From Candidatus Rokuibacteriota bacterium (GTDB lineage: Bacteria; Methylomirabilota; Methylomirabilia; Rokubacteriales; CSP1-6), in NCBI GenBank assembly GCA_030647435.1, contig JAUSJX010000081.1, positions 2,913-66,912 of the forward strand: a stretch of DNA of 64,000 nucleotides. Reading direction: 5' to 3'. Under the pieces are notes generated by a model. The model was not told the origin of the DNA and made no database searches. It worked only from the letters and a program-made list of their open reading frames with translations. Made by a program: the position numbers and the translations under genes. This document shows, piece by piece, positions 2,998 to 21,719 of the stretch; the first letter of the stretch is position 1, and each line of letters opens with the position of its first letter.

Positions 2998-3153
2998 CTC
3001 CCCGCCGCGTATCGCTTTCGGGACATTGACACGCCGGAAGAGCGCGTCAGGATGGATGTGTCGGACGCGCTGATTGACTTTGGGGTCCACGGGCCCCTAC
3101 AATGATGAAACTGCTCGTCGAATTGGGCGTTTACGCGCCTCGGAGGAGAACCC

Positions 3154-5283: not shown

Positions 5284-5291
5284 GAGCGACC

Positions 5292-6452: not shown

Positions 6453-6454
6453 CC

Positions 6455-6994
6455 GTGGCGTCGCGGGGCCGCCGCCCGGCGCGCGGGCCCCGGGAGCGGC
6501 GGGAGCTGGACGCGAAGGCCGCCAAGCTGGCGGCCTTCGACCTTCTCGCCCGCAAGTCCTGGAGCGCCCGCGAGCTGACGAGCCGGCTGAAGCGCCGCGG
6601 CGCGCCCGACGAGATCGCGCGTGCGGTGGTCGCCGAGCTCTGCTCCCGAGGCTACGTGGACGACGCCTCGTTCGCGCGCTTCTGGGCCGAGTCGCGCGCG
6701 CGCGGGCGGCGCGTCGGCAGCCGCCGTCTCCGCCAGGAGCTTCTCCAGAAGGGCATTCCGCGCGACGTGGCCGCCGCGGCGATCGCCGCCGCCTTCGAGG
6801 AGGCGCCCGAGGCTCTGCGGTGCCTCGAGGCGGGACGCCGCCGGCTGCCGGCCCTCCTGCGGGCCGGCCTCCCACGGGCGGCGCCGCGGCTGCGCGACTA
6901 CCTCGTGCGCCGCGGATACCCCCTAGCGGTCGTCATGCGGACGGTCGCGGCGCTCACCGGGACGCGCCCCGACGGAGACGCACCGTCCGACTGA
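6455..6994 (+). CDS. recX: RecA regulator RecX
   Basis: 179-aa Arg-rich helical repeat protein (LAAFDLLARKSWSARELTSRLKRRG...). Sits in the classic recA-recX-alaS arrangement. GTG start. Confidence 0.75.
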   Translation: MASRGRRPARGPRERRELDAKAAKLAAFDLLARKSWSARELTSRLKRRGAPDEIARAVVAELCSRGYVDDASFARFWAESRARGRRVGSRRLRQELLQKGIPRDVAAAAIAAAFEEAPEALRCLEAGRRRLPALLRAGLPRAAPRLRDYLVRRGYPLAVVMRTVAALTGTRPDGDAPSD

Positions 6995-7013
6995 CCCCCG
7001 GTATAATGACGCC

Positions 7014-9701
7014 ATGGCCATGACCGGTAGCGAGCTCCGCCAGCGCTTCCTGGAGTACTTCAGCCGCCACGGGCACACCGTGGTGCGCTCGTCGCCCCTC
7101 GTGCCCGCCCACGACCCGACGCTCCTCTTCACCAACGCCGGGATGGTCCAGTTCAAGAGCGTGTTCCTGGGCGAGGAGCGGCGGGAGTACAAGCGCGCGG
7201 CCACCGTGCAGAAGTGCGTGCGGGCGGGCGGCAAACACAACGACCTGGAGAACGTGGGCCGCACGGCCCGGCACCACACCTTCTTCGAGATGCTGGGCAA
7301 TTTCTCCTTCGGGGACTACTTCAAGGCCGAGGCCGTGGCCTTCTGCTGGGAGCTCCTGACCGGGGAGCTGGGGCTGCCGAAGGACCGGCTCAAGGCGACC
7401 GTCTTCACCGACGACGACGACGCGTTCGCGCTGTGGAAGAAAGTCGCCGGCTTGGGCGACGAGCGCATCCTGCGCCTGGGCGAGAAGGACAATTTCTGGG
7501 CCATGGGTGACACCGGCCCCTGCGGGCCGTGCTCCGAGGTGCACTTCCACCAGGGCGACCATTTCCCGTGCCCGGAGGAGCAGGCGGGCCGGACATGCCT
7601 GGGCCCGGCCTGCGACTGCGACCGCTGGCTCGAGATCTGGAACCTCGTCTTCATGCAGTTCAACCGGGACGCGTCGGGGAAAATGACGCCCCTGCCCAAG
7701 CCCTCGATCGACACGGGCATGGGCCTCGAGCGCCTCGCCGCCGTGATGCAGGGCACGCCGTCCAACTACGACACCGACCTCCTGCGCCCGCTGATCACCC
7801 GCGTCGAGCGCCTCGCGTCGAAGCGCTACGGCGCAGATGCCGAGCACGACGTCTCGATGCGGGTCATCGCCGACCACGCGCGCGCGGCCACCTTCCTCAT
7901 CACCGACGGCGTGACGCCGTCGAACGAGTGGCGCGGCTACGTGCTGCGCCGGATCATGCGCCGGGCCATGCGCCACGGCCGCATGCTCGGGCTCGAGCGG
8001 CCCTTCCTCTGGGAGGTGACCTCGACCGTGGTGGAGATTCTGGGCGGAGCGTACCCGGAGATCATCGAGGCCCGCGGGCACGTCGCGGATGCCGTGAAGC
8101 AGGAGGAGGAGCGCTTCAGCGAGACGCTCGGCCTCGGCACGGCCAAGATCCACGAGTACCTCGAGGCTCATGCCCACGACCCGCGAAAAGTCGCCGACGG
8201 GAAGTTTCTCTTCACGCTCTACGACACCCATGGCTTCCCGACCGATCTCGCGCAGGAGGTCTTCCAGGACGCCGGCTGGTCCGTGCCGCCGGAGGCGATG
8301 CAGCAGTTCGAGACCGAGATGGAGGCCCAGCGCGAGCGCGCGCGGGCGGGCGCTTCTTTCGGCGCGGCGGCCGCCGACGGGGACGGCACGGTCGAGATCT
8401 ATCGCCAGCTCTCGGCGCAGATCGGCAAGCCTGAGTTCCTCGGCTACTCCCAGCTGGCGACGCCCGCGCGGATCCTGGCCCTGGTCGGCGAGGGACGGCG
8501 GCTCACCGAGGCGGTGCAGGGCCAGGTCGTCGAGGTCATCCTCGACCGCACGCCCGCCTATGCCGAGTCCGGCGGCCAGATGGGCGATACCGGCGCCATC
8601 ATGGGGCGCGAGGGGCAGGGGTCCATCGAGGACACGTACTACCGGAGCGGCCATCTGATCGTCCACCGCGTCCGCGTCAACCAGGGGAGGTTGAGGGAAA
8701 ACGAAGAGGTGGCCGTGTCCGTCGAATCGGCCCGGCGCCAGGGTTTGAAACTCCACCACACGGGGACGCACCTGCTCCACGCGGCGCTCAGGAGGGTCCT
8801 CGGCACCCACGTGACGCAGGCGGGTTCGCTGGTCGCGCCCGACCACCTGCGCTTCGACTTCTCCCACGGCGGGCCGCTCAAGGACGGCGAGATCGAGAAG
8901 GTCGAGGATCTCGTCAACGAGCACGTCCAGGCCAACATCGTCGTCACGCCCGCCGAGATGGATCTCCAGGCCGCGCTCAAGAGCGGGGCCATGGCGCTGT
9001 TCGGCGAGAAGTACGGCGACCGCGTGCGCGTCATCCGCATCGGGGATTTCTCCACCGAGCTCTGCGGCGGCACGCACCTCGAGGCCACCGGCCAGATCGG
9101 CCTCTTCAAGGTCGTCTCCGAGGGCGCCGTCGCCTCTGGCGTCCGCCGCATCGAGGCGGTGACGGGCGAGGCCGCGCTGAGACATGTAGGCCGGCAGGAG
9201 GCGGCGCTGCGCGAGTCGGCAGGCCTCCTCAGGATCCCGCCGCTCGAGCTGCCGCGGCGCCTCCAGAAGCTCCTCGACGAGCAGAAGCAGCTCGAAAAGC
9301 AGGTGCAGCAGCTCGAGGCGCGACTCGCGAAGAACAGGGCGCAGGAGCTGGCTCTAGCCGCGAAGACCGTCGCGGGTGTGACCGTGCTGGCGGCGCGCAT
9401 CGACGGCCTCGACGCCGAAGGGCTGCGCTCGGTCGTGGATACGCTGCGCGAACGCATGGGTCCGGGCGTGATCTGTCTGGGATCCTTGATGGATGGGAAG
9501 GTCGCCTTGGTGGCGTCCGTTTCCAAGGACCTGACGAAACGCATTCAGGCCGGGAAGCTCGTGCAGGAGGTGGCGCCGCTCGTCGGCGGCAAGGGCGGTG
9601 GTCGGCCTGACCTGGCGCAGGGCGGCGGCACCGATGCCTCACGGCTCGACGAAGCCTTGGCCCTTGTGCCGGCCTTTATCGAGCGCGCGTACAAGGTCTA
9701 G
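7014..9701 (+). CDS. alaS: Alanine--tRNA ligase
   Basis: 895 aa with the class II AlaRS catalytic core (FTNAGMVQFK, HHTFFEMLGNFSFGDYFK) and a C-terminal editing domain with HTGTHLLH and CGGTH motifs. Confidence 0.95.
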   Translation: MAMTGSELRQRFLEYFSRHGHTVVRSSPLVPAHDPTLLFTNAGMVQFKSVFLGEERREYKRAATVQKCVRAGGKHNDLENVGRTARHHTFFEMLGNFSFGDYFKAEAVAFCWELLTGELGLPKDRLKATVFTDDDDAFALWKKVAGLGDERILRLGEKDNFWAMGDTGPCGPCSEVHFHQGDHFPCPEEQAGRTCLGPACDCDRWLEIWNLVFMQFNRDASGKMTPLPKPSIDTGMGLERLAAVMQGTPSNYDTDLLRPLITRVERLASKRYGADAEHDVSMRVIADHARAATFLITDGVTPSNEWRGYVLRRIMRRAMRHGRMLGLERPFLWEVTSTVVEILGGAYPEIIEARGHVADAVKQEEERFSETLGLGTAKIHEYLEAHAHDPRKVADGKFLFTLYDTHGFPTDLAQEVFQDAGWSVPPEAMQQFETEMEAQRERARAGASFGAAAADGDGTVEIYRQLSAQIGKPEFLGYSQLATPARILALVGEGRRLTEAVQGQVVEVILDRTPAYAESGGQMGDTGAIMGREGQGSIEDTYYRSGHLIVHRVRVNQGRLRENEEVAVSVESARRQGLKLHHTGTHLLHAALRRVLGTHVTQAGSLVAPDHLRFDFSHGGPLKDGEIEKVEDLVNEHVQANIVVTPAEMDLQAALKSGAMALFGEKYGDRVRVIRIGDFSTELCGGTHLEATGQIGLFKVVSEGAVASGVRRIEAVTGEAALRHVGRQEAALRESAGLLRIPPLELPRRLQKLLDEQKQLEKQVQQLEARLAKNRAQELALAAKTVAGVTVLAARIDGLDAEGLRSVVDTLRERMGPGVICLGSLMDGKVALVASVSKDLTKRIQAGKLVQEVAPLVGGKGGGRPDLAQGGGTDASRLDEALALVPAFIERAYKV

Positions 9702-9730
9702 CGACGCTGCTGGAGACAGCCAAACACCGC

Positions 9731-10435
9731 ATGGCTGACACGCGCGGGACCATCCTCATCGTGGACGACGAGCCCGCCACGATCGAGCTGCTCTCCGACT
9801 ACCTCGGCGGCAAGCGGCTTGCCGTCGCCCGCGCGCACAACCTCGACGAGGCGCTGGCTGAGCTCGACCGGGAGCGCCCCAACGCCGTCCTCATCAGCCT
9901 GCGCCTGGGCGAGGCCGATGGGCTCGAGGTGCTCCAACGCATCCGGGAGGTCAACGTGCAGGTGGGGCTCCTCGTCATGGCCGAGCAGGAGGACGCGGGC
10001 CGCGCCAAGGAGGCGCTCGCGCTCGGGGCCATGGACTACCTCCTCAAGCCCATCGACTTCGACTATCTGAACCGCGCCATCGAGAAGGCCCTGAGCGTCT
10101 CGGCGCCGATGATCGACTACGCGGAGACGCCGCCCGAGCCCGCGGCGGCTCTGACGCCGTCCGGTCTGCTTTACGCGCTTGCCCTCGAAGTCTTCCGGGC
10201 GACGCGAGCGTTCTCTCCTGAGGCGCGCGCCTCGGTCGGCACCGGGCTCGAGCAGGCGGCGCTCGCCGCCATGCAGCGAGGTGTCGGCGGCGAGAAGGCC
10301 GAGGTCATTCGCGCGCTCAACCAGGTGCGCAACATGATCCGCTTCGCGTTTGACCTGGGCGACATCAGCGCCGAGACGGCCGGGCGTCTCGACGAGCACA
10401 TGGCGCGGGCGCGCCGGTCCGTGGGGCTGTCGTAG
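9731..10435 (+). CDS. Response regulator (CheY-like receiver) with C-terminal helical domain of unknown function
   Basis: N-terminal REC domain (ILIVDDEP...D...KP). The C-terminal ~100 aa is helical and has no recognisable DNA-binding motif. Confidence 0.65.
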   Translation: MADTRGTILIVDDEPATIELLSDYLGGKRLAVARAHNLDEALAELDRERPNAVLISLRLGEADGLEVLQRIREVNVQVGLLVMAEQEDAGRAKEALALGAMDYLLKPIDFDYLNRAIEKALSVSAPMIDYAETPPEPAAALTPSGLLYALALEVFRATRAFSPEARASVGTGLEQAALAAMQRGVGGEKAEVIRALNQVRNMIRFAFDLGDISAETAGRLDEHMARARRSVGLS

Positions 10436-10479
10436 CGCCCGGGCGCGCGCAGTCTTCCGTCCCGACTGGAGAGGACCTC

Positions 10480-11154
10480 GTGAATTCCGCCGTGCTGTTC
10501 GACTTCGGGGGCACGCTCGACGCCGACGGCCTGACGTGGAAGGAGCGCTTCCACCGCCTCTTCGAGGCCGAGGGCGTCGCCGTCGAGCCCGCGCGCTTCG
10601 ATCCCGTCTTCTACGCGGCCGACGATGCCCTCGTCGGCACCGTGCCGGAGTCCTTCTCGCTCGAGGAGACCGTCCGCCGTGTTGCCGACGGCGTGGCGAA
10701 AGCGCTTCGACCGAATGTTCCGGCGCTCGGCTCGCGGGTCGCGGCGCGCTTCCTTGCCGACGCCCGGGCCTGCTTCGAGTCGAACGCGCCGATCCTGGAG
10801 CGCCTCGCCCGCCGCTACCGCCTCGGCATCGTGTCCAACTTCTATGGCAATCTCGCGACGGTGTGCGATAATGCGCAGGTTCGGCGGTACTTTGGCGTCA
10901 TCATAGACTCGGCGCGGGTGGGGATCAGCAAGCCGGACCCGCGCATTTTCATGAAAGCTTTAGACGCGCTGGGGATCGAGCCGGGCCGCACGGTCATGGT
11001 TGGCGACTCACTGGCCCGCGACATGGCGGGAGCGCGCGCGGCCGGCATGGCCCACATCTGGCTCACGCCGGCCCCAGAGCGGCAGGGACGGCCGTGCTGC
11101 CCGGGCGACCGCGTGATCCAGTCGCTGCGCGACCTGGAGGGAATACTGCCGTGA
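10480..11154 (+). CDS. HAD-superfamily hydrolase (phosphatase), first gene of the IPCT/DIPPS-like operon
   Basis: DxG motif at the N-terminus (FDFGGTLD) and HAD motifs III/IV (ISKPDP, MVGDSLARD). GTG start. Its stop overlaps the next gene's start. Confidence 0.7.
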   Translation: MNSAVLFDFGGTLDADGLTWKERFHRLFEAEGVAVEPARFDPVFYAADDALVGTVPESFSLEETVRRVADGVAKALRPNVPALGSRVAARFLADARACFESNAPILERLARRYRLGIVSNFYGNLATVCDNAQVRRYFGVIIDSARVGISKPDPRIFMKALDALGIEPGRTVMVGDSLARDMAGARAAGMAHIWLTPAPERQGRPCCPGDRVIQSLRDLEGILP

Positions 11155-11873
11155 CATTGGATCCGGGCCTCTCTGGGTCGCCGGGCCTATCGGGCGGCAT
11201 CATCGCCGCGGGCGAGGGCAGCCGCCTGAGGCAAGCCGGCTGGGCCGTGCCCAAGCCCATGGTAGAGGTGGCGGGCGTGCCGCTGATCGAGTCGGCGATC
11301 CGGAACTTCGTCGCCGCGGGCATCACGCGGCTGTCGATCATCGTCAACGAGCAGGAGCGCGACTGCGCGGCGTGGGTCCGCGGCCGGTTCCCCGAGCTCG
11401 ACCTCCGGCTGACCGTGAAGACGACCGCCTCGTCGCTCGAGAGCTTCCGCGAGGTCGCCGGCGGTCCCGGCGCGGGGCGCATGCTGGTCTCGACGGTGGA
11501 CGCCTGGTGCCGCGCGGCGGACTTTCGGCGCTTCGTGGAGGCGGCGCTCCGCCGGCCGCGCGAGGCGACGGTACTGGCGGTGACGCCGCTCGTAGCCGAC
11601 GAGAAACCGCTGGGAGCGGTCGTGGACGCCCTAGGCCGCATCACCGCGCTCGGCGTCGAGTCGCCCGCGCTCGTGACGGCCGGTGTGTACCTCCTGTCGG
11701 AGCGGGTGCGGCGCATCGAGCCGCCCGTCGGCCTCGGCAGGCTGCGGGAGCACCTGGCCTGGCTCCTGGAGTCAGGCGAGCCGATGTACGGGGACGTGAT
11801 CGAGACCGTCGTGGACGTGGATCGAGCCGAGGACGTGGCGCTGGCCGAAGCGCTGGCGGCGCGGGCCTCGTGA
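11151..11873 (+). CDS. Sugar/alcohol-phosphate nucleotidyl(cytidylyl)transferase, IPCT-like
   Basis: N-terminal G-rich loop IIAAGEGSRL...PKPMVEVAGVPLIE resembles the CTP:inositol-1-phosphate cytidylyltransferase signature (AAGxGTRL...PKPLv.VgG). The GTG start overlaps the upstream TGA. Confidence 0.65.
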   Translation: MTLDPGLSGSPGLSGGIIAAGEGSRLRQAGWAVPKPMVEVAGVPLIESAIRNFVAAGITRLSIIVNEQERDCAAWVRGRFPELDLRLTVKTTASSLESFREVAGGPGAGRMLVSTVDAWCRAADFRRFVEAALRRPREATVLAVTPLVADEKPLGAVVDALGRITALGVESPALVTAGVYLLSERVRRIEPPVGLGRLREHLAWLLESGEPMYGDVIETVVDVDRAEDVALAEALAARAS

Positions 11874-11892
11874 GCGGACCGGGAGGAAGTGC

Positions 11893-12732
11893 GTGAACGA
11901 TTCTCATTGCTGGGGCATCTTCCGCGAGGAGGCGCACTCGCCGGGGCGGGAGAGCGACGACACCGAGATCCTGCGCCTGACCGCGAAGGGTCTCGAGGCC
12001 AAGGGGTTCCAGGTCGACCTGAAGACGCCTGACGAGCTGGGTGTCGTCACCGACACCAGGCCGCGCGGCATGTTCCTCATGTGCGAGCAGCCCGGGGCGC
12101 TCCAGGCGGTCACGGCGCTGGAGGTCTCCGGGGTTCGCGCGGTCAACAGCCCGGCCGCCGTGCTCAACACCTATCGCGAGCGCATGATCGCGCAGTTCGC
12201 GGAAGCGCGCGTGCCGTTCATCGCGAGCCGGCTCGTGACGACGTCGGACGAGCGCATCGCCGCGCCGCGGTCGCTGTGGGTCAAGCGCGCCGACGTCCAC
12301 AACACCCAGGAGGGCGACGTCGTCTATGCCGCGGACGCGGCGGCCGCCGCGCTCGCGCTCGAGGGGCTCGCGGCGCGCGGCATCCCGCGCGCCGTCCTCC
12401 AGCCCCACGTGGACGGCGACTTGATTAAGTTCTACGGCATCGGTCCCGGCGGCGGCGCCCACGGCGAGCCGCCCTGGTTCCGGTGGTTCTACCACAAGGA
12501 CCAGCAGCTCAGCGGCCACGCCTTCGACCAGCGCGCGCTCGCGCGCCTCGTGCGCCAGGCGGCCGGCGCGCTCGGCCTCGAGATCTACGGCGGCGACTGC
12601 ATCGCGACCGCTTCGGGCGAGCTCGTCCTGATCGACCTCAACGCGTGGCCGAGCTTCGCGCTCTTCCGCGAGGAGGCCGCCTCCGCCATCGCCGCGTACC
12701 TCTCGGTGCGCTTCACGGGGAGGCCGCGGTGA
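11893..12732 (+). CDS. ATP-grasp family ligase (RimK / glutathione-synthetase-like fold)
   Basis: 279 aa with a C-terminal ATP-grasp pattern (GDLIKFYGIG...ELVLIDLNAWPSF). Lies inside the coupled operon. Confidence 0.55.
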   Translation: MNDSHCWGIFREEAHSPGRESDDTEILRLTAKGLEAKGFQVDLKTPDELGVVTDTRPRGMFLMCEQPGALQAVTALEVSGVRAVNSPAAVLNTYRERMIAQFAEARVPFIASRLVTTSDERIAAPRSLWVKRADVHNTQEGDVVYAADAAAAALALEGLAARGIPRAVLQPHVDGDLIKFYGIGPGGGAHGEPPWFRWFYHKDQQLSGHAFDQRALARLVRQAAGALGLEIYGGDCIATASGELVLIDLNAWPSFALFREEAASAIAAYLSVRFTGRPR

Positions 12733-14072
12733 GCGGGATGCGCGAGCCCGGGCCGCGGGAGCCAGGGCCGCGATCCAAGGAGATCGTCGAGCGCGAGCGG
12801 CGCCACGCCGCCGCCGGCGGGCAGGGCTTCGCGCTCTACGCGGGGCTCGCCATGGCGCGCGGCCAGGGGTGCACGCTCGTGGACGAGGACGGCCAGGAGT
12901 ACATCGACTTCATCGCGGGCGTCGCCGTGGGCTCCGTCGGTCACTGCCACCCGCACTACGTCGAGGCGCTCAAGAACCAGGTCGAGAAGCTCACCTTCGG
13001 CAGCTTCACGACCGAGGCGCGCGCGCGCTTCCTCGAGCTGGTCGCCTCCGTGACGCCCGAGGGGCTGACGCGCATCCAGATGTTCTCGGGCGGCGCTGAG
13101 GCTGTCGAGGCGGCGTTGAGACTCGCCAAAGTTGCCACGGGCAAGGACGAGGTCATCGGCTTCTGGGGCGGCTTCCACGGCAAGACCGGCGGCGTGCTGG
13201 GTCTCCTCGGCAGCGACTTCAAGCACCACCTGGGTCCCTTCATGCCGGGCCAGTACTCGACGCCGTATGCCGACTGCTACCGCTGCCCGCTCAAGCTCAC
13301 GTATCCCGACTGCGGCATCGCCTGCGCCGAGTTCGTTGGCGACGTGATCCGCTACCAGACGGGCGGCGAGATCGCGGCCATCATCGTCGAGCCGATGCAG
13401 GGCACGGCCGGGAACATCATCCCGCCCGAGGGTTTCCTGCGCGCCATTCAGCAGATCGCCAAGGATGCAGGCGCGCTCCTGATCGCGGACGAGATGATCA
13501 CGGGCTTTGGGCGAACGGGCCTCATGTGGGGCTCGGAGCACGACCGGGTCGTGCCCGACATCATGACCGTCGGCAAGGGCGTGGGCGGCGGCTTCCCGCT
13601 GTCCGCCGTCATCTCCACGGATGACCTGACGAGCCGGAAGCCCTGGTCCAACCCGTCCGCCAGCTCGTCCTCGTACGGCGCCAACCCGCTCGCCTCAGCG
13701 GCGGGGCTGGCGGCGCTCGAGATCATTCTCAAGGAAGACCTCGTCAAGAACGCCGACCGCGTGGGCGCCGTCATGCTCACCCGGCTCGAGGCGATGAAGG
13801 AGAAGTACCGGTGCGTGGGCGAGGTGCGCGGCCGCGGCCTGATGCTGGGCATGGAGCTGGTCAAGGACCGCCGCACCAAGGAGCCGCTCGGCAAGGACGT
13901 GACGCAGGCGCTCTACAAGGAGTGCCTCAGGCGCGGGCTTGCCGCGATGACGTATTCACCGACGGTGCGCATCAACCCGCCGCTGATCATCCGCGAAGAG
14001 GCCGCGCTCAACGGGCTCGCCATCCTCGACGAGGCCCTGGGGACGATAGTCAGGGAGCACCGGCTCCAGTAG
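12729..14072 (+). CDS. Class III pyridoxal-phosphate-dependent aminotransferase
   Basis: AT-III hallmarks: GHCHP, FSGGAEAVEAALRLA, LLIADEMITGFGRTG, and the PLP-binding Lys in TVGKGVGGGFP. The GTG start overlaps the preceding TGA. Confidence 0.8.
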   Translation: MSGMREPGPREPGPRSKEIVERERRHAAAGGQGFALYAGLAMARGQGCTLVDEDGQEYIDFIAGVAVGSVGHCHPHYVEALKNQVEKLTFGSFTTEARARFLELVASVTPEGLTRIQMFSGGAEAVEAALRLAKVATGKDEVIGFWGGFHGKTGGVLGLLGSDFKHHLGPFMPGQYSTPYADCYRCPLKLTYPDCGIACAEFVGDVIRYQTGGEIAAIIVEPMQGTAGNIIPPEGFLRAIQQIAKDAGALLIADEMITGFGRTGLMWGSEHDRVVPDIMTVGKGVGGGFPLSAVISTDDLTSRKPWSNPSASSSSYGANPLASAAGLAALEIILKEDLVKNADRVGAVMLTRLEAMKEKYRCVGEVRGRGLMLGMELVKDRRTKEPLGKDVTQALYKECLRRGLAAMTYSPTVRINPPLIIREEAALNGLAILDEALGTIVREHRLQ

Positions 14073-14073
14073 C

Positions 14074-15108
14074 ATGCTGCGCGGCGCCGTCATCGGGCTC
14101 GGCAATGTCGCCATCTACGGGCATCTGCCCGGGTGGCTCGGCCGCCCGGACGTTCGGATCGCGGCCGCCGCCGACTCCCGTCCCGCCCAGCGCGCCCTGT
14201 GCGAGGCGCGGCTTCCCGGCGCGCGCTGGTACGACTCGCCCGAAGATCTCCTGGCCGGCGAGCCGCTCGACTTCGTGGACATCTCCACCCCTCCCTCGAG
14301 CCACGCGCCCCTTATCGTCAGTGCCCTCGAGCGGGGCCTGCACGTGCTGTGCGAGAAGCCGCTCGTGAGTTCGCCCGCTGATCTGCGCCGCGTCACCCTA
14401 GCGGCCCGCTCGGCCGGCCGCGTGCTGCACACCGTGCACAACTGGCACCACGCGCCCATCCTCTCACTGACCGCCGACCTCATCCGCGAGGGCGAGATCG
14501 GTCGGGTGCGGCGCATTGTCTGGGAGACGCTGCGGGTGAGACCGGCAGCGGGCGGCAGTATCAACTGGCGGGTGGACCCCGCGGTGGCCGGCGGCGGCGT
14601 CCTCACCGACCACGGCTGGCACGTCTTCTACGTCCTGCCGGCCTGGGTCGGCGCGCGGCCGACAAGCGTCGGCGCGCGGCTCGAGACGCGGCGCCACACG
14701 GCTTTCGCCGTCGAGGACACGGCGTCGGTGCGGCTCGAGTTTGCCGACGCGAGCGCCGAGATTCTCCTGACCTGGGCCGCGGAGGAGCGGCGCAACCGGG
14801 TCGAGGTGGACGGCACGGAGGGGAGGATCGAGCTCCGCGACGACACGCTCGTGCTCACCGGCAAGGGTGGCGAGCGGCGCTGGTCGGGGCTGCCGGCGCT
14901 GTCGGACGGCTCGCATCATCCCGATTGGTTCCACAAGGTGGCGGGCCGCTTCATTGGGGCGGTGTCAGGAGGCGAGGGGCACGCGGACACCAACCTCGCG
15001 GAGGCGGCGCTCTGCTGCGAGATCGAGTACCTGGCTCGCGAGTCGAGCAGGCGGGGCGGAGCGCAGATACCGCTCAGCCGGGCGCCCCTCGCGGGGTCGC
15101 GTCTGTGA
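14074..15108 (+). CDS. Gfo/Idh/MocA family NAD(P)-dependent oxidoreductase (inositol-2-dehydrogenase-like)
   Basis: N-terminal Rossmann fold GAVIGLGNVAIYGHLPG and the EKP motif (LCEKPL). 344 aa. Confidence 0.8.
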   Translation: MLRGAVIGLGNVAIYGHLPGWLGRPDVRIAAAADSRPAQRALCEARLPGARWYDSPEDLLAGEPLDFVDISTPPSSHAPLIVSALERGLHVLCEKPLVSSPADLRRVTLAARSAGRVLHTVHNWHHAPILSLTADLIREGEIGRVRRIVWETLRVRPAAGGSINWRVDPAVAGGGVLTDHGWHVFYVLPAWVGARPTSVGARLETRRHTAFAVEDTASVRLEFADASAEILLTWAAEERRNRVEVDGTEGRIELRDDTLVLTGKGGERRWSGLPALSDGSHHPDWFHKVAGRFIGAVSGGEGHADTNLAEAALCCEIEYLARESSRRGGAQIPLSRAPLAGSRL

Positions 15109-16187
15109 CGGAGAGCCTTCTCGTGGTCGTGGATGCCGGCGTGGCGCCCGACATCACTCCCGAGACGATGGTGGCGGGGCTGCCGCTCGGGCGGCGCCTC
15201 TTGCTCGCCGGGGCGCGCGCGGGACTCGCCTCCGCCCCGTCCTCGGAGCCGGGACGCCGGCGTGTGATCCTCGTACCGTCCAACGTCATCCCGCAGCCGC
15301 GGTGGCTGCGGGCCCTGGCCGCCATGCCGCTCCAGCCCGAGACGCTCTGGGTGGATCCCGCGCAGGTCGCCGTGGTGGACACCGACGATCCGAAGCCGGT
15401 GCTCGACGCCGCCGGCCGCGCGGCGAGCGCGGCCGAGTGCGTCGCCGCCCTCAAAGGCCGGTTCGCGACGATCGAGGGGACCGCGGATCACAGGGGCCGC
15501 TTCGCGGTTCGCACGGCCGGCGACCTGCGCCGCGCCGAGTCGTGGCTGCTGCGCGGTCTCATCAAGGACTCCGAGGGCTTCATGTCCCGCCACGTCGAGC
15601 GGCTGGTCTCGCTCGCGCTGACGCGGCGCCTCGTCTGGACCTCGGTCACCCCGAACGCGATGACGCTCGTCTCGCTCGCCATCGGCCTGGCGGCGGCGCC
15701 GTTCTTCCTCTCCTCGACCCCCGGCTGGCAGCTCGCGGGCGCGCTCCTCTTCCTCCTGCACTCGATCCTGGACGGCTGCGACGGCGAGATCGCGCGGCTG
15801 AAATTCCTCGAATCCGCGGGCGGGGCGGCGCTGGATTTCTGGGGCGACAACAGCGTCCACGTGGCGGTCTTCGGCTGCATGGCTGTCGGCTGGAGCCTCT
15901 CCGCGCATTCGCCATGGCCGCTCTGCGTGGGAGCGGTCGCCGTCGCCAGCACGCTCGCCGCCGCGTTCGTCGTCGCGCCCCACATGGTCTCGGCGTTCGC
16001 GACGGCGGGGTCGCGCTCGGCGGGGGCCAAGACGGCCGACGCGCTCGCCAACCGCGACTTCATCTACCTGATCGTGGCGTTGTCGGTCTTCGGCAAGGCG
16101 GGGTGGTTCATCGTCTTCGTCGCGATCGGCACGCCGATCTTCGTGCTCGTGCGGCTCTGGGCCGACCGGCCGCAGGGGAGAGCCTAG
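15105..16187 (+). CDS. DIPPS-like CDP-alcohol phosphatidyltransferase with degenerate N-terminal nucleotidyltransferase-like domain
   Basis: C-terminal membrane domain has PNAMTLVSL...HSILDGCDGEIARL. This nearly matches the signature of bifunctional IPCT/DIPPS (di-myo-inositol-phosphate-phosphate synthase): PNQMTLISF...SSILDGCDGEIAR. The N-terminal ~190 aa lacks an intact GxGxRL loop. The GTG start overlaps the upstream stop. Confidence 0.75.
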   Translation: MTESLLVVVDAGVAPDITPETMVAGLPLGRRLLLAGARAGLASAPSSEPGRRRVILVPSNVIPQPRWLRALAAMPLQPETLWVDPAQVAVVDTDDPKPVLDAAGRAASAAECVAALKGRFATIEGTADHRGRFAVRTAGDLRRAESWLLRGLIKDSEGFMSRHVERLVSLALTRRLVWTSVTPNAMTLVSLAIGLAAAPFFLSSTPGWQLAGALLFLLHSILDGCDGEIARLKFLESAGGAALDFWGDNSVHVAVFGCMAVGWSLSAHSPWPLCVGAVAVASTLAAAFVVAPHMVSAFATAGSRSAGAKTADALANRDFIYLIVALSVFGKAGWFIVFVAIGTPIFVLVRLWADRPQGRA

Positions 16188-16190
16188 CCC

Positions 16191-17762
16191 GTGGCCGGGT
16201 TCATCGACGTCCTGCTCCGGGGGCTGGCCCTCTGCGGCCAGGCCGCCGCCATCGGAGGCGTGCTGTTCGCGCTGCTCGTCCTCAAGCCCGCCGCGCGCCG
16301 GCGCCCCGAGCTCTCCGCGCTGCTGGGCCGCCTCCTGCTCCTCGTCGTCGCGGGCGCAGTCGCCGTCACGGCAGGACAGCTTCTGGCGCTGACGGTCCAG
16401 CAGGTGGTGTTGGCGGGCGGGCAGGCGTGGCCCATCCGCGAGGTGCTCGGCACGGCCTACTTCCAGGCGAGCGCGCTCCGCGTGCTGACCTGCATTGCGC
16501 TCATCGTGGGCGCGCTTCGGCTCAGGCGGCGCCCCGACGCGCCCGGGTGGTGGCCCGCGATGGTGGCGCTGACCGTGGCGTTGGCCGCCACGGCAGCGGG
16601 GATCAGCCATGCGGCCGCGCGCCTCGAGCACGGCGGCGTCTTGTTTCTCCTGGACGCCGTGCACCAGTATGCCGCGTCAGTCTGGGTGGGAGGCCTCATG
16701 CATCTCACGGCCATGGCCTACGGGCGCGGCGGCGATGCGTGGCCGGCGCTCCTGCTCAAGCGCTTCTCGTCGATGGCGCTCTGCTCGGTGGTGGCGCTCG
16801 TCGCGGGGGGCGTCGGGTTGACGGTCTACTACGTGGACGGCTTCTCGGCTTTCACCGGGACGGCCTACGGCATGATGGTCGGCACCAAGATGACGATCCT
16901 GGCGCTCATCCTCGTGCTGGGCGCGCTCAACTTCTTCGTGGTGCGACGGCTGCCGTCGGCCGACCCCGTCTCGCTGCTGCGTCTCCGCCGCTTCGTGGAG
17001 GTCGAGCTGGGGCTCGGCGTCACCGTGCTCTTCGCCGCGGCCTCCCTGACGTCGCTGCCGCCCGCTGTGGACGTGGTCAATGACCGCGCCACGTTCGCCG
17101 AGGTCGCCCACGTGTTCACGCCCCGCGTGCCGTCCTTTACCTCGTCCAAGCTCGAGGACATGCCGCTGACCGACCGCGAGGCCCCGCGGACCGACGCGGA
17201 CCGGCAGTGGAGCGAGTACAACCACCACGTGGCCGGGCTGATCGTCCTGATCATGGGCATCCTCGCCATCCTCTACCGCACGGGCTGGGCGCCGTGGGCG
17301 CGGCACTGGCCGCTCGTCTTCTTCGCGCTGGCGGCTTTCCTGCTGGTGCGCAACGATCCGGGCTCCTGGCCATTGGGTCCGCAAGGTTTCTGGGCGGGCA
17401 TGCTCTTCACGGAGGTGCTCCAGCACCGGATCTTCGTGCTTCTCGTGCTGGGCTTCGGCACCTTCGAGTGGATGGTGCGCACGGGGCGTATCCGCTCGCC
17501 CCGCGCCGCCCTGGTCTTCCCCATCCTCTGCTCGGTGGGCGGCGCCCTTCTCCTCACGCACTCTCACGCCTCGCTGAACCTCAAGGCGGAGTACCTGATC
17601 GAAGTAACGCACATGCCCCTGGGCGGGATCGCCATGCTCGTGGGCTGGGGGCGCTGGCTCGAGCTGCGGCTCCAGCCCGGGGAGACGGCCCTGCCCGGGC
17701 GCGTCTGGTCGATCGGCTTGGCGATGGTCGGCGTGCTTCTTCTGCTTTACCGCGAGAGCTAG
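16191..17762 (+). CDS. CopD-family multi-pass membrane protein (copper-resistance/export-like) with extra C-terminal TM domain
   Basis: 523 aa with about 12 predicted TM helices. N-terminal half is CopD-like; the C-terminal half has His-rich loops (HSHAS). GTG start. Confidence 0.5.
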   Translation: MAGFIDVLLRGLALCGQAAAIGGVLFALLVLKPAARRRPELSALLGRLLLLVVAGAVAVTAGQLLALTVQQVVLAGGQAWPIREVLGTAYFQASALRVLTCIALIVGALRLRRRPDAPGWWPAMVALTVALAATAAGISHAAARLEHGGVLFLLDAVHQYAASVWVGGLMHLTAMAYGRGGDAWPALLLKRFSSMALCSVVALVAGGVGLTVYYVDGFSAFTGTAYGMMVGTKMTILALILVLGALNFFVVRRLPSADPVSLLRLRRFVEVELGLGVTVLFAAASLTSLPPAVDVVNDRATFAEVAHVFTPRVPSFTSSKLEDMPLTDREAPRTDADRQWSEYNHHVAGLIVLIMGILAILYRTGWAPWARHWPLVFFALAAFLLVRNDPGSWPLGPQGFWAGMLFTEVLQHRIFVLLVLGFGTFEWMVRTGRIRSPRAALVFPILCSVGGALLLTHSHASLNLKAEYLIEVTHMPLGGIAMLVGWGRWLELRLQPGETALPGRVWSIGLAMVGVLLLLYRES

Positions 17763-17904: not shown

Positions 17905-19065
17905 TCAGACCGCTTCGAGGAGTAGTCCCTTCAGGTAGCGGGATTCTGGGACGGTCAATAGGACGGGGTGGTCGCGGCTCTGGGACAGCGTGCGCAGCAC
18001 CCGCACGTTGACGCCCGCATCGCCGGCGGCCTCGCGGCAGATCTCCTCGAAGAGCCCCGGCGTGATGTGGTGCGAGCAGGAGAAGGTCGCCAGCACCCCG
18101 CCGGGCTCGAGCAGCCTGAGACCCCGGATGTTGATCTCCTTGTAGCCGCGCGCCGCCGCCTCGATCGCGTCCTTCCGACGCGTGAAGGGCGGAGGATCGA
18201 GGACGACCACGCCGAAGCGCTCGCCTGCCGCCTCGAGACCCCGCAGGAGGTCGAAGGCATTGCCCTCCCTGAGCTCCGCCCGGGCCGTCGCGCCGTTCAG
18301 CTCCAGATTCCGTCGCGCCAGCGCGAGAGCGGCGGCCGACGAATCGAGCAGGAGCGCCTGGGTAGCGCCCGAGCGAAGCGCGTGGCAGGCGAAGCCGCCC
18401 GAGAAGCAGAAGGCGTCGAGCACGCGCCGCCCGTCGGCATGCCGAGCTACGAGGGCGCGGTTCTCGGCCTGGTCGAGGTAGAGGCCGGTCTTGTGGCCCG
18501 CGCCGGGGGTGACGCCGAAGCGGCAGTCACCCTCGGTGACCACGAGCTCTTGCCCTGCCGGATCCTGGCGGGCGTCGAAGCCCTCGAGGTGTGCCGCCGT
18601 CGGCTCGTCGAGCCGGTGGATGCTCCCGTCGGGGAATTGCCGCCAAAGGGCTGCCAAGATCCAGCCCTCCGCCTTGAACATCCCGAGCGTCAGGCACTGG
18701 ACCACGCTCACGGGGCCGTAACGGTCCACCACGAGACCGGGCAGCCCGTCCGCCTCGCTCCAGCAGAGGCGATAGGCATCGGAGACCAGGCCTGCCGTCC
18801 GGCGGTACTCCCAGGCGGCCTCGAGCCGGCGCCTGAAGAACGCGGCGTCAATGGCCTCGTCACGCCTCGTGAGGAGGCGACAGCAGAGCGACGGGCGGGG
18901 ATTGTAGAAGCCCTGGCCGAGGTAGCGGCCGCCGGCATCCACCACCTCGACGGCCTCGCCGGCCTGCGAGAAGCCCTTGAGGTCGGCGACCTGCGTCCGG
19001 TAGATCCAGGGGTGGCCGGCGTTGACTCGATGCTCGGCGCCGCGCTTGAGAATGAGCCTGGCCAT
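17905..19065 (-). CDS. rlmI: 23S rRNA (cytosine1962-C5)-methyltransferase RlmI (PUA plus class I SAM MTase)
   Basis: 386 aa with an N-terminal PUA-like region, the SAM-binding motif VLDAFCFSGGF and the catalytic motif DPPPF. Confidence 0.8.
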   Translation of the reverse strand: MARLILKRGAEHRVNAGHPWIYRTQVADLKGFSQAGEAVEVVDAGGRYLGQGFYNPRPSLCCRLLTRRDEAIDAAFFRRRLEAAWEYRRTAGLVSDAYRLCWSEADGLPGLVVDRYGPVSVVQCLTLGMFKAEGWILAALWRQFPDGSIHRLDEPTAAHLEGFDARQDPAGQELVVTEGDCRFGVTPGAGHKTGLYLDQAENRALVARHADGRRVLDAFCFSGGFACHALRSGATQALLLDSSAAALALARRNLELNGATARAELREGNAFDLLRGLEAAGERFGVVVLDPPPFTRRKDAIEAAARGYKEINIRGLRLLEPGGVLATFSCSHHITPGLFEEICREAAGDAGVNVRVLRTLSQSRDHPVLLTVPESRYLKGLLLEAV

Positions 19066-19125
19066 AGTGGTCTAGACGCTCCCCCTCACTGTTTCAGCCC
19101 TCGCCTCACCGCTCGAGGCGAGCGT
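19066..19125 (-). repeat. Intergenic repeat family R2 (~55 bp), single copy
   Basis: Its reverse complement (gagctgaaacgctcgcctcgagcggtgaggcgagggctgaaacagtgaggg) closely matches the tandem units at 30961-31076. Confidence 0.7.
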
Positions 19126-19162
19126 TTCAGCTCGAACTCCGGCCCTCTCCCCCAGAGGGAGC

Positions 19163-19191
19163 GAGGGTTTCAATTCTCCCTCTCCCCGCTG
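19163..19191 (-). terminator. GC-rich perfect hairpin (10-bp stem ccctctcccc/ggggagaggg, loop gct) between the methyltransferase gene and rlmI
   Basis: Perfect inverted repeat read directly from the sequence. No clear U-tract follows, so it may be a processing or stability element rather than an intrinsic terminator. Confidence 0.35.
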
Positions 19192-19220
19192 GGGAGAGGG
19201 CCGGGGTGAGGGGAAACTCC

Positions 19221-19994
19221 TCAGAGCTTTCTCAGGACGACGACCATCAGGAGCGGGTGGTGGGCCCGGTCGAGCTTGAGGTGGGGCCTGAAGCCGTAGA
19301 ACCATTCGACCAGGTCAAAGCCTCCCGCCAATGCGACCAGCGCCCGGAGCTCCTGCGGAAAGACCATGCGGGAGGCGTGACGCTGGCGGTAGACGTGCCG
19401 GCGGCCGTCCTCGTGCGCCTCGAGCTCCATGTCCTCGTAGAACGTCTGGGTCACCGGGTTGAGGTCTTTGAGGGCCTCGAATGTCGCGCGCACCGTCGCC
19501 CGCCCGCGCCGCCTCGTCCAGGACCAGCGCCGCGCCGGGTCGGTCCACGACGAGCACATGTAGCGGTCGAAGACGTAGAGTCCGCCCTTGCGGACGGCCT
19601 TGGCCACGCAGCGGAGATGGGCCAGGATGGCCTCGTTCGTGAGCAGGTGCCCTTGCGAGTCCTGCATGCAGATGGCGGCGTCCACGGGGCGGGGCAGCGT
19701 GAAGCGGGTCATGTCCGCCACGTGGAGACCTACGTCGAGGCCCTCCTCCGCCGCCCGCTCCCGGAGGAAGGCGATATTCTCGGGCGACAGGTCGAGGCCC
19801 GACATGCGGTAGCCGCGCCGGCCGAGCCTGATCAGGTGCGGGCCCGTGCCGCAGGCGATGTCGAGCACGGTCTTCACGGGGCGCCTCGCATAGCGGCGGA
19901 AGCAGTGGGCGAGGAAGTCCACCTCCTGCTTCCGGTTCATGTCGAACGCGATCTCGTAGTAGCGCGGCGCCGAGTACTGACCCTTCTGGCTCAC
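19221..19994 (-). CDS. Class I SAM-dependent methyltransferase
   Basis: Motif I VLDIACGTG and motif II/post-I region. Likely GTG start at 19994 with a GAGG Shine-Dalgarno 5 nt upstream. The ORF-track ATG at 20075 would overlap speB by 77 nt. Confidence 0.65.
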   Translation of the reverse strand: MSQKGQYSAPRYYEIAFDMNRKQEVDFLAHCFRRYARRPVKTVLDIACGTGPHLIRLGRRGYRMSGLDLSPENIAFLRERAAEEGLDVGLHVADMTRFTLPRPVDAAICMQDSQGHLLTNEAILAHLRCVAKAVRKGGLYVFDRYMCSSWTDPARRWSWTRRRGRATVRATFEALKDLNPVTQTFYEDMELEAHEDGRRHVYRQRHASRMVFPQELRALVALAGGFDLVEWFYGFRPHLKLDRAHHPLLMVVVLRKL

Positions 19995-19998
19995 GGCC

Positions 19999-20856: not shown

Positions 20857-20922
20857 GTGGGTAGCTCGCCTCGGACGGCGGGGCCCCAGCCCCGCGACGT
20901 CCTGCAGTTCGCAGTTCCCGAA

Positions 20923-21405: not shown

Positions 21406-21719
21406 TTCTCCTCCTCGCCTCCTTGGTTGAAGTGAAACGCCGCGGAAATTTTTCTTCGCCCATGTTAGCGAGTCGGGAGTGGAACGCAAGAGAAAAGTGG
21501 CCGCCGGCCGGCTTCCGATCGCTCGGCCGGCGGCTCCACGGCGGCTCATCCCGCCGCTTGACGACCGCCGATCGGGCCCGCGGCGGGCGCCTCGGCCTCG
21601 CCGACAGCCTCCGGAGAGGGCATTTTTTCCTTGCAATGCTAAAAACATGGCCCTACATTCAGAAAAATCGCATTCGCAGGTTTTTCGCGAGCGAGAAACG
21701 AACGGAGAGGAGAAAAAGA

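Follow-up and report, generated by a model that had tools for sequence, protein, structure and literature searches.

What might an operon make that sets, in this order, genes for a HAD hydrolase, a nucleotidyltransferase, an ATP-grasp enzyme, a class-III aminotransferase, a Gfo/Idh/MocA oxidoreductase, a CDP-alcohol phosphotransferase and a CopD-like membrane protein? Our search of the literature found no paper on the cluster and no described pathway that matches it, in keeping with the initial annotation of the locus, which had not recognised the combination either. The window (the whole stretch of DNA analysed, 64,000 nucleotides) carries these seven co-directional genes at 10480-17762 on the plus strand. 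Direct reading of the sequence and of the list of open reading frames confirms the gene run and motifs first reported. The operon had been counted as six genes; the tight coupling holds, and the count rises to seven with the CopD-like gene, g7.

Neighbouring genes either overlap by a GTGA or lie 1-19 nt apart. The HAD gene g1 (10480-11154) overlaps the nucleotidyltransferase gene g2 (11151-11873) by a GTGA, with GGAGG 10 nt upstream of g2. A 19-nt gap with a GGGAGGAAG Shine-Dalgarno sequence leads to the ATP-grasp gene g3 (11893-12732), and a second GTGA joins g3 to the aminotransferase gene g4 (12729-14072). The oxidoreductase gene g5 (14074-15108) follows after 1 nt, the phosphotransferase gene g6 lies at 15105-16187, and g7 (16191-17762) begins 3 nt further on. 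The start of g6 is ambiguous: the 15105-equivalent start (360 aa) is the call in many database homologues, and GTG 15123, with a better GGAG 9 nt upstream, is the choice of the gene caller on the identical contig L001. ATGA or GTGA overlaps had been claimed at three junctions; those of the GTGA type are real, no ATGA occurs, and the one between g5 and g6 is uncertain. We saw no promoter- or terminator-like site at any junction of the operon.

We compared the cluster with 88 related loci, mostly from Methylomirabilota. All six genes g1-g6 are present in 62 of them, and 59 keep the identical order on one strand, down to about 55% identity; nearly all loci that depart from it lie at contig ends. 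Given this conserved synteny, the six-gene arrangement is far beyond chance. The most conserved gene is g4, with 74-95% identity across loci. The host is an uncultured member of the Rokubacteria/Methylomirabilota from soil or groundwater. Its widely conserved operon, which in relatives often lies beside hopanoid genes, most likely encodes a hitherto undescribed pathway. We read it as a CDP-alcohol (Kennedy-type) pathway for an inositol-derived, amino-sugar-like polar lipid head group, a product that we infer and to which we give about an even chance.

The membrane enzyme g6 (Pfam CDP-OH_P_transf) belongs to the AF2299/DIPPS clade. Its full signature, D-x2-DG-x2-AR-x8-G-x3-D-x3-D, is intact, SILDGCDGEIAR and PNAMTLVSL are present, and its N-terminus (VVVDAGVAPD...) lacks the GxGxR loop that binds NTP, all as previously noted. 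Against the PDB, the g6 profile matches AF2299 (1e-30), IPCT/DIPPS (1e-20) and PIP synthase (6e-13), and more weakly PI synthase (2e-6) and CEPT (0.04). Since its top matches are AF2299 and DIPPS, the possibility that g6 clusters instead with PgsA or Pss finds no support. The membrane domain is homologous to that of IPCT/DIPPS (A. fulgidus AF0263, PDB 4mnd) and of its paralogue AF2299 (PDB 4o6m), and g6 shares with both the identical DGCDGEIAR core. Also common to them are the juxtamembrane helix, the cytosolic N-terminal domain (about 130 aa in g6) and roughly six TM segments, a number taken by eye from the sequence. Thus, the DIPPS-like character first proposed holds at the level of the clade. 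Membership of the bifunctional IPCT/DIPPS family was rejected: that model is the best NCBIfam match of g6, at 80.5 bits and so under the cut-off of 580, and the N-domain is without its G-loop. A comparison of this domain with a cytidylyltransferase fold gave no demonstrable homology (hhalign probability 2.5%). The operon's own cytidylyltransferase candidate is a separate protein, only distantly related to that of IPCT/DIPPS.

The order of nucleotidyltransferase, CDP-alcohol transfer and phosphatase is exactly the scheme of di-myo-inositol-phosphate (DIP) synthesis, and the operon might make a soluble compatible solute of this kind, an aminated di-inositol-phosphate analogue against osmotic or heat stress. 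Here, g2 would form a CDP-(amino)cyclitol, g6 would link this to a second cyclitol phosphate, also soluble, and g1 would remove the terminal phosphate. Both relatives of g6 that have been characterised or have a solved structure, DIPPS and AF2299, act on soluble substrates only, which counts against a lipid head group. The six-TM architecture is likewise associated with soluble acceptors and counts against a lipid one (Clarke et al. 2015, PMC4634129).

The two proteins that open the operon are less specific. The 240-aa g2 (Pfam NTP_transferase, NTP_transf_3) has an intact GxGxR/PKP loop, AAGEGSRL...PKPMVEVAG; its best model matches are GlmU-arch, MurU, RmlA and HddC, its closest structures MurU-like 4y7t and HddC 5xhw, and it meets the IPCT/DIPPS model at 23.8 bits across 55 residues. 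By sequence, g2 is a generic sugar-1-phosphate/LicC-type nucleotidyltransferase, and we propose that it acts as a CTP:cyclitol-phosphate cytidylyltransferase. The loop that had been called IPCT-like is there, and the label derives from context only. As for g1 (224 aa; HAD-IA family, Pfam Hydrolase/HAD_2/Hydrolase_like), motifs II-IV are intact and motif I is atypical, D-F-G-G-T. The general acid/base Asp+2 is Gly in all of some 80 homologues, and because of this the role of plain final phosphatase, first suggested for the HAD protein, is less certain. We propose that g1 is the cyclitol (bis)phosphate phosphatase of an activation module.

That module is defined by the company that g1, g2 and g3 keep. 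Fusions join the nucleotidyltransferase to g3 in six proteins, and HAD-nucleotidyltransferase-g3, g3-phosphotransferase and g3-HAD fusions also occur; at least seven cluster representatives carry a g2-type domain fused with a g3 homologue. A core of HAD, nucleotidyltransferase, g3 and phosphotransferase, without aminotransferase or oxidoreductase, is found in a Rokubacteria MAG (L047) and in three Bacteroidaceae loci (L087, L090, L091). In these three, one operon encodes homologues of g1, g2 and g3 that match over the full length (E 1e-31 to 1e-40; for the HAD protein, 27% identity and E 9e-31), whereas the transferase has 317 aa, no N-domain and only 35% identity to g6 over 69 residues. Thus, HAD, nucleotidyltransferase and ATP-grasp enzyme form the core module.

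A similar grouping is known from nucleotide-heptose synthesis, in which a kinase (HldE/HddA), the HAD phosphatase GmhB and a nucleotidyltransferase (HddC/HldE) relocate the phosphate to the position that is nucleotidylated. The analogy suggests three matching enzyme roles and includes kinase-nucleotidyltransferase fusions, and HddC is one of the structures that g2 matches best. However, the heptose kinases are of the GHMP or PfkB type rather than ATP-grasp, the substrate is a heptose, and no CDP-alcohol transferase follows.

The kinase in such a scheme would be g3, an unannotated ATP-grasp enzyme of 279 aa. It carries a D-x-N-x-Φ-P-S-F metal site, as in inositol-phosphate kinases, and we read it as a putative cyclitol(-phosphate) kinase rather than an amide ligase. 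Sequence similarity to the ATP-grasp kinases ITPK1, ITPK4 and PPIP5K is confined to some 50-100 residues, only 9 members of the family, out of 45, match the Pfam model Ins134_P3_kin (E ~2e-3), and the overall fold is nearer RimK and LysX than ITPK-type kinases. Alternatively, g3 could be a carboxylate ligase, of the carboxylate-amine or carboxylate-hydroxyl type, that (amino-)acylates the cyclitol to give a charged head group comparable to lysyl-PG, moved across the membrane by the MprF-like flippase. We find this doubtful: where the aligned ligases have Glu as second metal ligand, g3 has Asp (D-x-N), as ITPK does, and the repeated fusions to nucleotidyltransferase and HAD domains are typical of kinase/nucleotidyltransferase pairs. 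Furthermore, g3 is kept in core clusters without an aminotransferase and is therefore independent of an installed amine, which makes the earlier suggestion that it amidates that amine unlikely.

The amine itself would come from g4 and g5. The 447-aa g4 is a class-III (omega-type) PLP aminotransferase (Aminotran_3, 335 bits) with the PLP lysine motif TVGKGVGGG, closest in structure to GabT-like and archaeal class-III enzymes; we propose that it converts a keto-cyclitol into an aminocyclitol. The ketone would be supplied by g5 (344 aa; NAD(P)-dependent, Pfam GFO_IDH_MocA plus C-terminal domains; motifs EKP and GGG-x-L-x-D-H), proposed as a cyclitol (phosphate) dehydrogenase. Its initial description as inositol-dehydrogenase-like does not hold in particular: g5 reaches 60.9 bits against the IolG cut-off of 355, and GFOR (7e-22) and aldose-aldose oxidoreductase are nearer in structure than scyllo-inositol dehydrogenase (1e-12). 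In model and structure comparisons, none of g2, g4 and g5 bears an inositol-specific signature; this, like the HAD protein without its catalytic Asp+2, counts against the head-group pathway.

Could the pathway then involve no inositol? An ordinary NDP-amino-sugar route like WbpB/WbpE or NtdC/NtdA/NtdB, which combines an oxidoreductase, an aminotransferase and a HAD enzyme, might serve a cell-envelope glycan, with g6 placing a phosphodiester-linked sugar on a polymer or carrier lipid. It would fit the top-scoring sugar-1-phosphate nucleotidyltransferases, the Gfo/Idh/MocA-aminotransferase pair classical for 3-amino sugars (WbpB is among the g5 matches) and a window without inositol-1-phosphate synthase (MIPS). 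We judge it improbable, since g6 falls in an inositol/glycerol phosphodiester clade, no glycosyltransferase or polymer-export genes are conserved near the cluster, and MIPS directly flanks it in many relatives. About 20 related loci have a MIPS gene at a distance of no more than 10 kb, and it adjoins the cluster in Methylomirabilis, Nitrospirota and one distant lineage (flanking loci L002, L041/45/49/56, L036/63/71, L050/61/62/76 and L085, the last being the distant one). The inositol link first suggested is therefore supported, with MIPS outside this window.

The neighbourhoods of relatives also bear on the acceptor. A flippase-like gene of the LPG_synthase_TM/HpnL (MprF-TM) type lies in or beside the operon in about half of the loci (~42), HpnM-like neighbours occur in 17 and HpnN-like in 14, all scoring under NCBIfam cut-offs, and MlaE/F/D genes are interleaved with the cluster in L085. 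Squalene-hopene cyclase (799 bits) is directly upstream in Methylomirabilis, HpnH (553 bits) is 3 kb away in a Nitrospirota MAG, and a full hpn set surrounds L086. None of MIPS, squalene-hopene cyclase, HpnL, HpnN or Mla is encoded within the window, so for both the lipid and the inositol link the evidence comes from relatives. There, the neighbours make a membrane-lipid head group more likely than a DIP-like solute, with HpnM/HpnN, squalene-hopene cyclase and HpnH genes beside the cluster in at least four lineages. The linkage to MIPS would suit the solute as well, but we consider the solute unlikely: the hosts live in soil and groundwater and are mesophiles, not (hyper)thermophiles, and the Bacteroidaceae core is similar to a cluster to which inositol-lipid synthesis has been ascribed, as a proposal, in Bacteroidetes that make such lipids. 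There, nucleotidyltransferase, CDP-alcohol transferase, HAD and MIPS genes of Bacteroides vulgatus and Prevotella are proposed to yield inositol lipids through CDP-inositol (Heaver et al. 2022, PMC9246714). The putative 'alternative inositol lipid cluster' of that study has the same core, usually with MIPS, and an LPG-synthase-like gene nearby; an ATP-grasp gene goes unmentioned. L090 may correspond to its BVU_RS13095-13115. Of the solute or polar head group initially envisaged, the head group is thus preferred, and that interpretation as a whole is partly supported.

The hopanoid neighbours raise another option, in which the amine sits on the hopanoid rather than the cyclitol: g4 would work as HpnO does, with ribosylhopane aldehyde as its substrate, g5 would take the ribosyl lactol and g1 phosphoribohopane, and g2 and g6 would then add a phospho-cyclitol to bacteriohopanepolyol. 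HpnO is reportedly a class-III aminotransferase, and squalene-hopene cyclase, HpnH, HpnG, HpnA and HpnL/M/N adjoin the cluster in several lineages, the cluster lying inside or beside hpn loci (shc, hpnH, hpnL, hpnM, hpnN) in Methylomirabilis, Nitrospirota, some Rokubacteria and L086. No described hpn gene is among g1-g7. The aminotransferase, the oxidoreductase and g3 remain together even without a hopanoid gene within 10 kb, as in this window, which holds no hpn gene. The core module also occurs in Bacteroidaceae, not known as hopanoid producers, and adjacent MIPS is an obvious source of cyclitol for g4 and g5. We hold hopanoid tailoring to be quite unlikely.

In the preferred pathway to an inositol-derived head group, MIPS encoded elsewhere in the genome would provide an inositol phosphate; g5 would oxidise one ring carbinol and g4 aminate the resulting ketone, so that an inosamine-type aminocyclitol, free or as its phosphate, would be formed. 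By the logic of the heptose kinase, GmhB and nucleotidyltransferase, g3 would phosphorylate this compound, g1 strip the phosphate at the 'wrong' position and g2 form the CDP-cyclitol, from which g6, working on the cytoplasmic side of the membrane, would transfer the phospho-aminocyclitol to an acceptor alcohol. The acceptor would most likely be a membrane lipid, of the diacylglycerol type or a bacteriohopanepolyol, and the cluster's neighbours in relatives, the HpnL/MprF-TM flippase-like protein and HpnN/Mla-type systems, may export the product. Compared with IPCT/DIPPS, the ATP-grasp, aminotransferase and oxidoreductase steps are added, in mesophilic hosts and lipid-related neighbourhoods.

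Lastly, g7 is a polytopic membrane protein of 523 aa in the CopD family (Pfam CopD, 68 bits; NCBIfam CopD, 72.9 bits, under the cut-off of 195) and is possibly a membrane partner of the pathway. In 50 of 84 loci a homologue comes after the transferase gene, and in many Rokubacteria the LPG_synthase_TM flippase-like gene comes next.

Seven open reading frames follow one another on the plus strand between 10480 and 17762, in a window whose G+C content is ~70% throughout. They encode a HAD-family protein (g1, 10480-11154), a nucleotidyltransferase (g2, 11151-11873), an ATP-grasp protein (g3, 11893-12732), a class-III aminotransferase (g4, 12729-14072), a Gfo/Idh/MocA oxidoreductase (g5, 14074-15108), a CDP-alcohol phosphotransferase (g6, 15105-16187) and a CopD-like membrane protein (g7, 16191-17762). 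The GTG start of g2 overlaps the stop of g1 (GTGA), with GGAGG 10 nt upstream. The start of g3 is preceded by GGGAGGAAG, g4 overlaps g3 through another GTGA, and a single nucleotide separates g4 from g5. The initial annotation counted three such overlaps; those at g1/g2 and g3/g4 hold, but the third, at g5/g6, is uncertain because g6 has two candidate starts. GTG at 15105 creates the overlap and gives 360 aa, whereas GTG at 15123 gives 354 aa and has a better placed GGAG 9 nt upstream. The gene caller picks 15123 on L001 (the contig identical to the window), and both choices are called for g6 homologues in public databases. Pattern scans of the gene boundaries found no promoter- or terminator-like sites. 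All the motifs quoted earlier are present in the window, including a complete CDP-alcohol signature, and Pfam and NCBIfam support five of the six families of g1-g6. The exception is g3, which has zero matches in either database.

This arrangement is widely conserved. Metagenomic homologues of g3 and g6 run into the thousands, and the named ones belong to Candidatus Rokubacteria/Rokuibacteriota. A scan using one genome per species found g3 relatives in 272 species; the 80 loci kept from it come mostly from Methylomirabilota/Rokubacteria, together with metagenome-assembled genomes (MAGs) labelled Methylomirabilis or Nitrospira/Nitrospirae and a few others. All six genes occur in 62 of 88 related loci, in the window's order and on one strand in 59, and nearly all loci short of the full set stop at a contig edge. 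We conclude that the operon is genuine, of long standing and maintained by selection. The groups that carry it are abundant in soils, in aquifers and in nitrogen and methane cycling, and hardly anything is known about their polar lipids. The position of g7 (523 aa), which begins 3 nt past the transferase stop, is kept by a CopD-like gene in 50 of 84 related loci. Neither CopC nor any other copper gene was seen next to g7, and the last ~230 residues of the protein have no family match. Instead of handling copper, it may take part in the pathway.

The transferase g6 carries the D-x2-D-G-x2-A-R-x8-G-x3-D-x3-D signature across TM2-TM3 as DGCDGEIARLKFLESAGGAALDFWGD and is a member of PF01066 (42.1 bits, cut-off 22). 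Profile searches of the PDB rank the Archaeoglobus fulgidus paralogue AF2299 first (E = 1.2e-30), followed by the bifunctional DIP-phosphate enzyme IPCT/DIPPS (1e-20), PIP synthase (PIPS chimera, 6e-13) and, more weakly, PI synthase (2e-6) and CEPT1 (0.04). AF2299 is also closest in the single-sequence PDB search, and neither PgsA nor Pss matched g6 in the PDB searches, so that the DIPPS-like reading of the initial annotation stands. The best NCBIfam model is likewise IPCT/DIPPS (NF041135). However, g6 reaches only 80.5 bits against a cut-off of 580, the match is confined to residues 194-412 (the membrane domain), and the N-terminus, LLVVVDAGVAPDITPE, has no GxGxR(L) NTP loop. We therefore reject a bifunctional IPCT/DIPPS, and g6 is predicted from its sequence to act as an AF2299/DIPPS-clade member. 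Its N-terminal cytosolic domain (~130 aa) gives a 1.7-bit local match to that of AF2299, and hhalign matches it to the g2 family profile over no more than 29 columns, at 2.5% probability. AF2299 and DIPPS have a cytidylyltransferase-like N-terminal domain and do not process lipids, and their six-TM architecture is associated with soluble acceptors (Clarke et al. 2015, PMC4634129).

The strongest support for the initial annotation's central idea, a product built on inositol, comes from relatives. Inositol-1-phosphate synthase (MIPS) was not found in the 64-kb window, but it is clustered with these genes in ~20 related loci. It lies directly after the transferase in Methylomirabilis-type (L041, L045, L049, L056) and Nitrospirota-labelled (L036, L063, L071) loci, and directly before the cluster, flanking it, in four others (L050, L061, L062, L076). 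In L002 the order is MlaD, MlaC/HpnM-like, MIPS and MMPL, then the seven genes, and even in the distant L085, with a g3 of 35% identity, MIPS sits at the cluster end.

The soluble enzymes are less specific, and g2, g4 and g5 carry no inositol-specific signature. The nucleotidyltransferase g2, previously described as IPCT-like, resembles GlmU-arch, MurU, RmlA and HddC-type enzymes and matches the IPCT/DIPPS model over 55 residues only (23.8 bits); neither a curated cut-off nor a specific nearest neighbour backs the name. The same applies to the inositol-dehydrogenase label of g5, whose nearest relatives are GFOR and aldose oxidoreductases. It scores 60.9 bits against the IolG model (TIGR04380, inositol 2-dehydrogenase; cut-off 355), slightly below the levoglucosan and xylose dehydrogenase models. 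The aminotransferase g4 is a PF00202 member (335 bits) with the PLP-lysine GKG motif at TVGKGVGGG. It is generic GabT/ArgD-like and reaches no specific equivalog cut-off, and with no specific nearest neighbour either it cannot be equated with any named aminotransferase. An ordinary NDP-amino-sugar pathway is a very improbable reading of the operon. A lysine pathway of the LysW/AAA type (LysX + LysJ) was rejected since LysW/Z/Y/K genes are missing and the partners are instead a nucleotidyltransferase and a CDP-alcohol transferase. Two further candidates were also rejected: phosphonate (AEP) head-group synthesis, for which no PEP mutase is conserved nearby, and a mycothiol- or bacillithiol-like thiol, for which there is no glycosyltransferase and no Cys ligase.

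The HAD protein g1 departs from the phosphatase pattern. Its motif I reads D-F-G-G-T (10501-10521), instead of D-x-D-x-T with the general acid/base at Asp+2, and motifs II-IV are present and normal. Every homologue examined (~80) has D-(F/Y/L/W)-G-G-T, so the replacement of Asp+2 by Gly is invariant among them and extends to the Bacteroidaceae (DYGGT). This makes the role of a simple phosphatase less confident. From its motifs, g1 belongs to an atypical HAD subfamily, and the reaction it catalyses may be something other than simple phosphate hydrolysis.

The ATP-grasp protein g3 was originally proposed to amidate the amine made by g4. It has the hallmarks of the superfamily (three-domain fold, Lys and a D/E...D/E-x-N metal site). 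A single-sequence PDB search gave no match, and the family profile matches PsnB (3.8e-6), ITPK4 (1.9e-5), a RimK-like ligase (1e-4) and ITPK1 (2.8e-4). In domain searches, g3 itself has no match to PF05770 (ITPK-type inositol-phosphate kinases), which is found in 9 of 45 family members (best E 2.2e-3), and RimK is similar, at 11 of 45. In g3 the C-terminal motif is of the ITPK type, G-x-D ... D-x-N-x-aromatic-P-(S/G)-(F/Y), and the second metal ligand is Asp rather than Glu. The family consensus YGGDaIv...LIDlNdWPSF aligns with FGIDII...VIDINAFPGY in ITPK1 and FGFDVV...VIVDLNYLPSF in ITPK4, whereas the ligases PsnB and RimK-like show E-x-N at the same site (ELNASAMF, EVNSSPGL). An Asp second ligand followed by aromatic-P-S/G-F/Y is typical, and diagnostic, of inositol-phosphate kinases.

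Gene context argues in the same direction. Among cluster representatives, g3 is fused to the nucleotidyltransferase (n = 6), to HAD and nucleotidyltransferase together (n = 1), to the CDP-alcohol transferase (n = 1) and to HAD (n = 1). Complete clusters also exist without aminotransferase and oxidoreductase. In a Rokubacteria MAG (L047) the order is HAD-nucleotidyltransferase-g3-transferase, and in Bacteroidaceae (L087, 9291-12475; L090 and L091, 7306-10469) it is PdxA-nucleotidyltransferase-ATP-grasp (g3)-CDP-alcohol transferase-HAD. Since g3 is kept in these clusters, it needs no amine made by g4, and the amidation role loses ground. An acylating ligase, which would give an amino-acylated head group, is an alternative for this single step, but the Asp metal ligand, the module fusions and the clusters without aminotransferase speak against it and leave it doubtful. 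We infer that g1-g3 form a three-enzyme activation module, in which the simplest role for g3 would be that of a kinase. The logic is shared with nucleotide-heptose synthesis: the position to be activated is phosphorylated, the original phosphate is removed and the product is nucleotidylated. Because MIPS produces 1D-Ins3P while canonical inositol lipids are linked via position 1, a 'phosphate walk' of this kind would make chemical sense.

The module also bears on a known system. The 'alternative inositol lipid cluster' of Bacteroides vulgatus and Prevotella combines a nucleotidyltransferase, a CDP-alcohol transferase, a HAD protein and MIPS with an LPG-synthase-like gene nearby; it was proposed as a Kennedy-like route to inositol lipids, still unconfirmed, and the account does not include an ATP-grasp gene (Heaver et al. 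2022, PMC9246714). The window likewise has the first three (g2, g6 and g1) but, unlike that core, not MIPS. In our Bacteroidaceae comparison, which covers MAG loci, the HAD protein, the nucleotidyltransferase and the ATP-grasp protein are homologous to g1-g3 over their entire length (27-31% identity, E 1e-31 to 1e-40), and the transferases have nothing but the signature region in common with g6. The ATP-grasp gene carries no annotation in these loci. Its presence there suggests that the CDP-inositol route in Bacteroidetes may lack one enzyme in current models, a gap that cultivable Bacteroides and Prevotella put within reach of experiment.

The initial annotation left the product open between a DIP-like solute and a polar head group, and what surrounds the cluster in relatives favours a lipid. 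An LPG_synthase_TM gene (MprF flippase-domain, HpnL-like) lies within or adjoining the operon in ~42 loci; in L011 (99.5 bits) it comes eighth, behind the CopD-like gene. MlaE, MlaF and MlaD are interleaved between nucleotidyltransferase and g3 in L085. The Methylomirabilis locus L041 has HpnM-like, HpnN-like (590 bits), HpnM-like, PagL-like, squalene-hopene cyclase (799 bits, above cut-off) and HpnL-like genes ahead of the cluster and MIPS. Its PagL-like gene (4651-5301, between HpnM-like and cyclase) encodes an outer-membrane beta-barrel of the lipid A 3-O-deacylase family, and a purple-acid-phosphatase-like gene follows MIPS. In a Nitrospirae MAG (L036) MIPS is followed by IspG and HpnH (553 bits, above cut-off), and in L086 the genes lie amid Dxs, IspH, SQS_PSY, HpnG-, HpnA- and HpnH-like genes and squalene-hopene cyclase. 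This last locus (1-12103), with its full hopanoid/MEP neighbourhood, also has two LPG_synthase_TM genes and a pair of g3 paralogues, of which one stands alone and the other is part of a 700-aa fusion with the CDP-alcohol transferase. That shc, hpnH and hpnL/M/N recur beside the cluster suggests a partnership with hopanoids, either functional or covalent.

A membrane-lipid head group is thus favoured over a DIP-like solute. An aminated DIP-like solute, which the lipid and hopanoid genes around the cluster in relatives disfavour, is unlikely; in its favour, the only characterised relatives of g6 use soluble substrates (PMC4634129) and the window itself carries neither shc, hpnH or related hopanoid genes nor the other lipid genes seen in relatives. 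Our best model, to which we give an even chance, is that a CDP-aminocyclitol is made and its phospho-aminocyclitol moved onto a membrane alcohol. Here, g5 would oxidize an inositol phosphate and g4 transaminate it to an aminocyclitol (phosphate), g3, g1 and g2 would convert this to the CDP-aminocyclitol, and g6 would transfer the phospho-aminocyclitol to a diacylglycerol-type or bacteriohopanepolyol acceptor. The product would be distributed by flippase-like, HpnN-type and Mla-type systems, whose genes lie near the cluster in relatives. Such a head group, zwitterionic like PE and built on inositol chemistry, would define a new class of bacterial membrane lipid and could act as a biomarker for these uncultured lineages.

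With bacteriohopanepolyol as acceptor, attachment to the polyol side chain would give a phosphodiester-linked, zwitterionic 'phospho-inosamine hopanoid', carried to the outer membrane by the HpnL-like flippase, HpnN and Mla-type systems. Bacteriohopanetetrol has a polyol tail that resembles a soluble substrate, which would account for a six-TM DIPPS-type enzyme acting on a lipid acceptor. We regard this as a long shot. If true, it would be a new lipid class and the first phosphorylated composite hopanoid, missed by standard hopanoid work-ups. Equally improbable is that g4 acts like HpnO in hopanoid side-chain amination. Neither the enzyme families nor the CDP-alcohol logic is new; in the literature, we found no description of a gene set with the cyclitol amination pair and the unannotated ATP-grasp, nor of the cluster's phylogenetic spread or recurrent hopanoid linkage.

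Further observations concern the operon's flanks. A response-regulator receiver domain gene (9731-10435) ends 44 nt upstream of g1, and the ~110-aa C-terminal part of its product matches no output domain. Its position is kept in the close relative L003 and not in distant loci. Downstream, the genes from 17905-21729 (minus strand) and beyond are syntenic with L003 and L004. Based on precomputed Pfam hits of the relatives, they encode a PUA/SAM methyltransferase, a second methyltransferase, an arginase-family (agmatinase-like) protein and a pyruvoyl-dependent arginine decarboxylase; in L003, AdoMet decarboxylase and spermidine synthase come next, forming a polyamine block.
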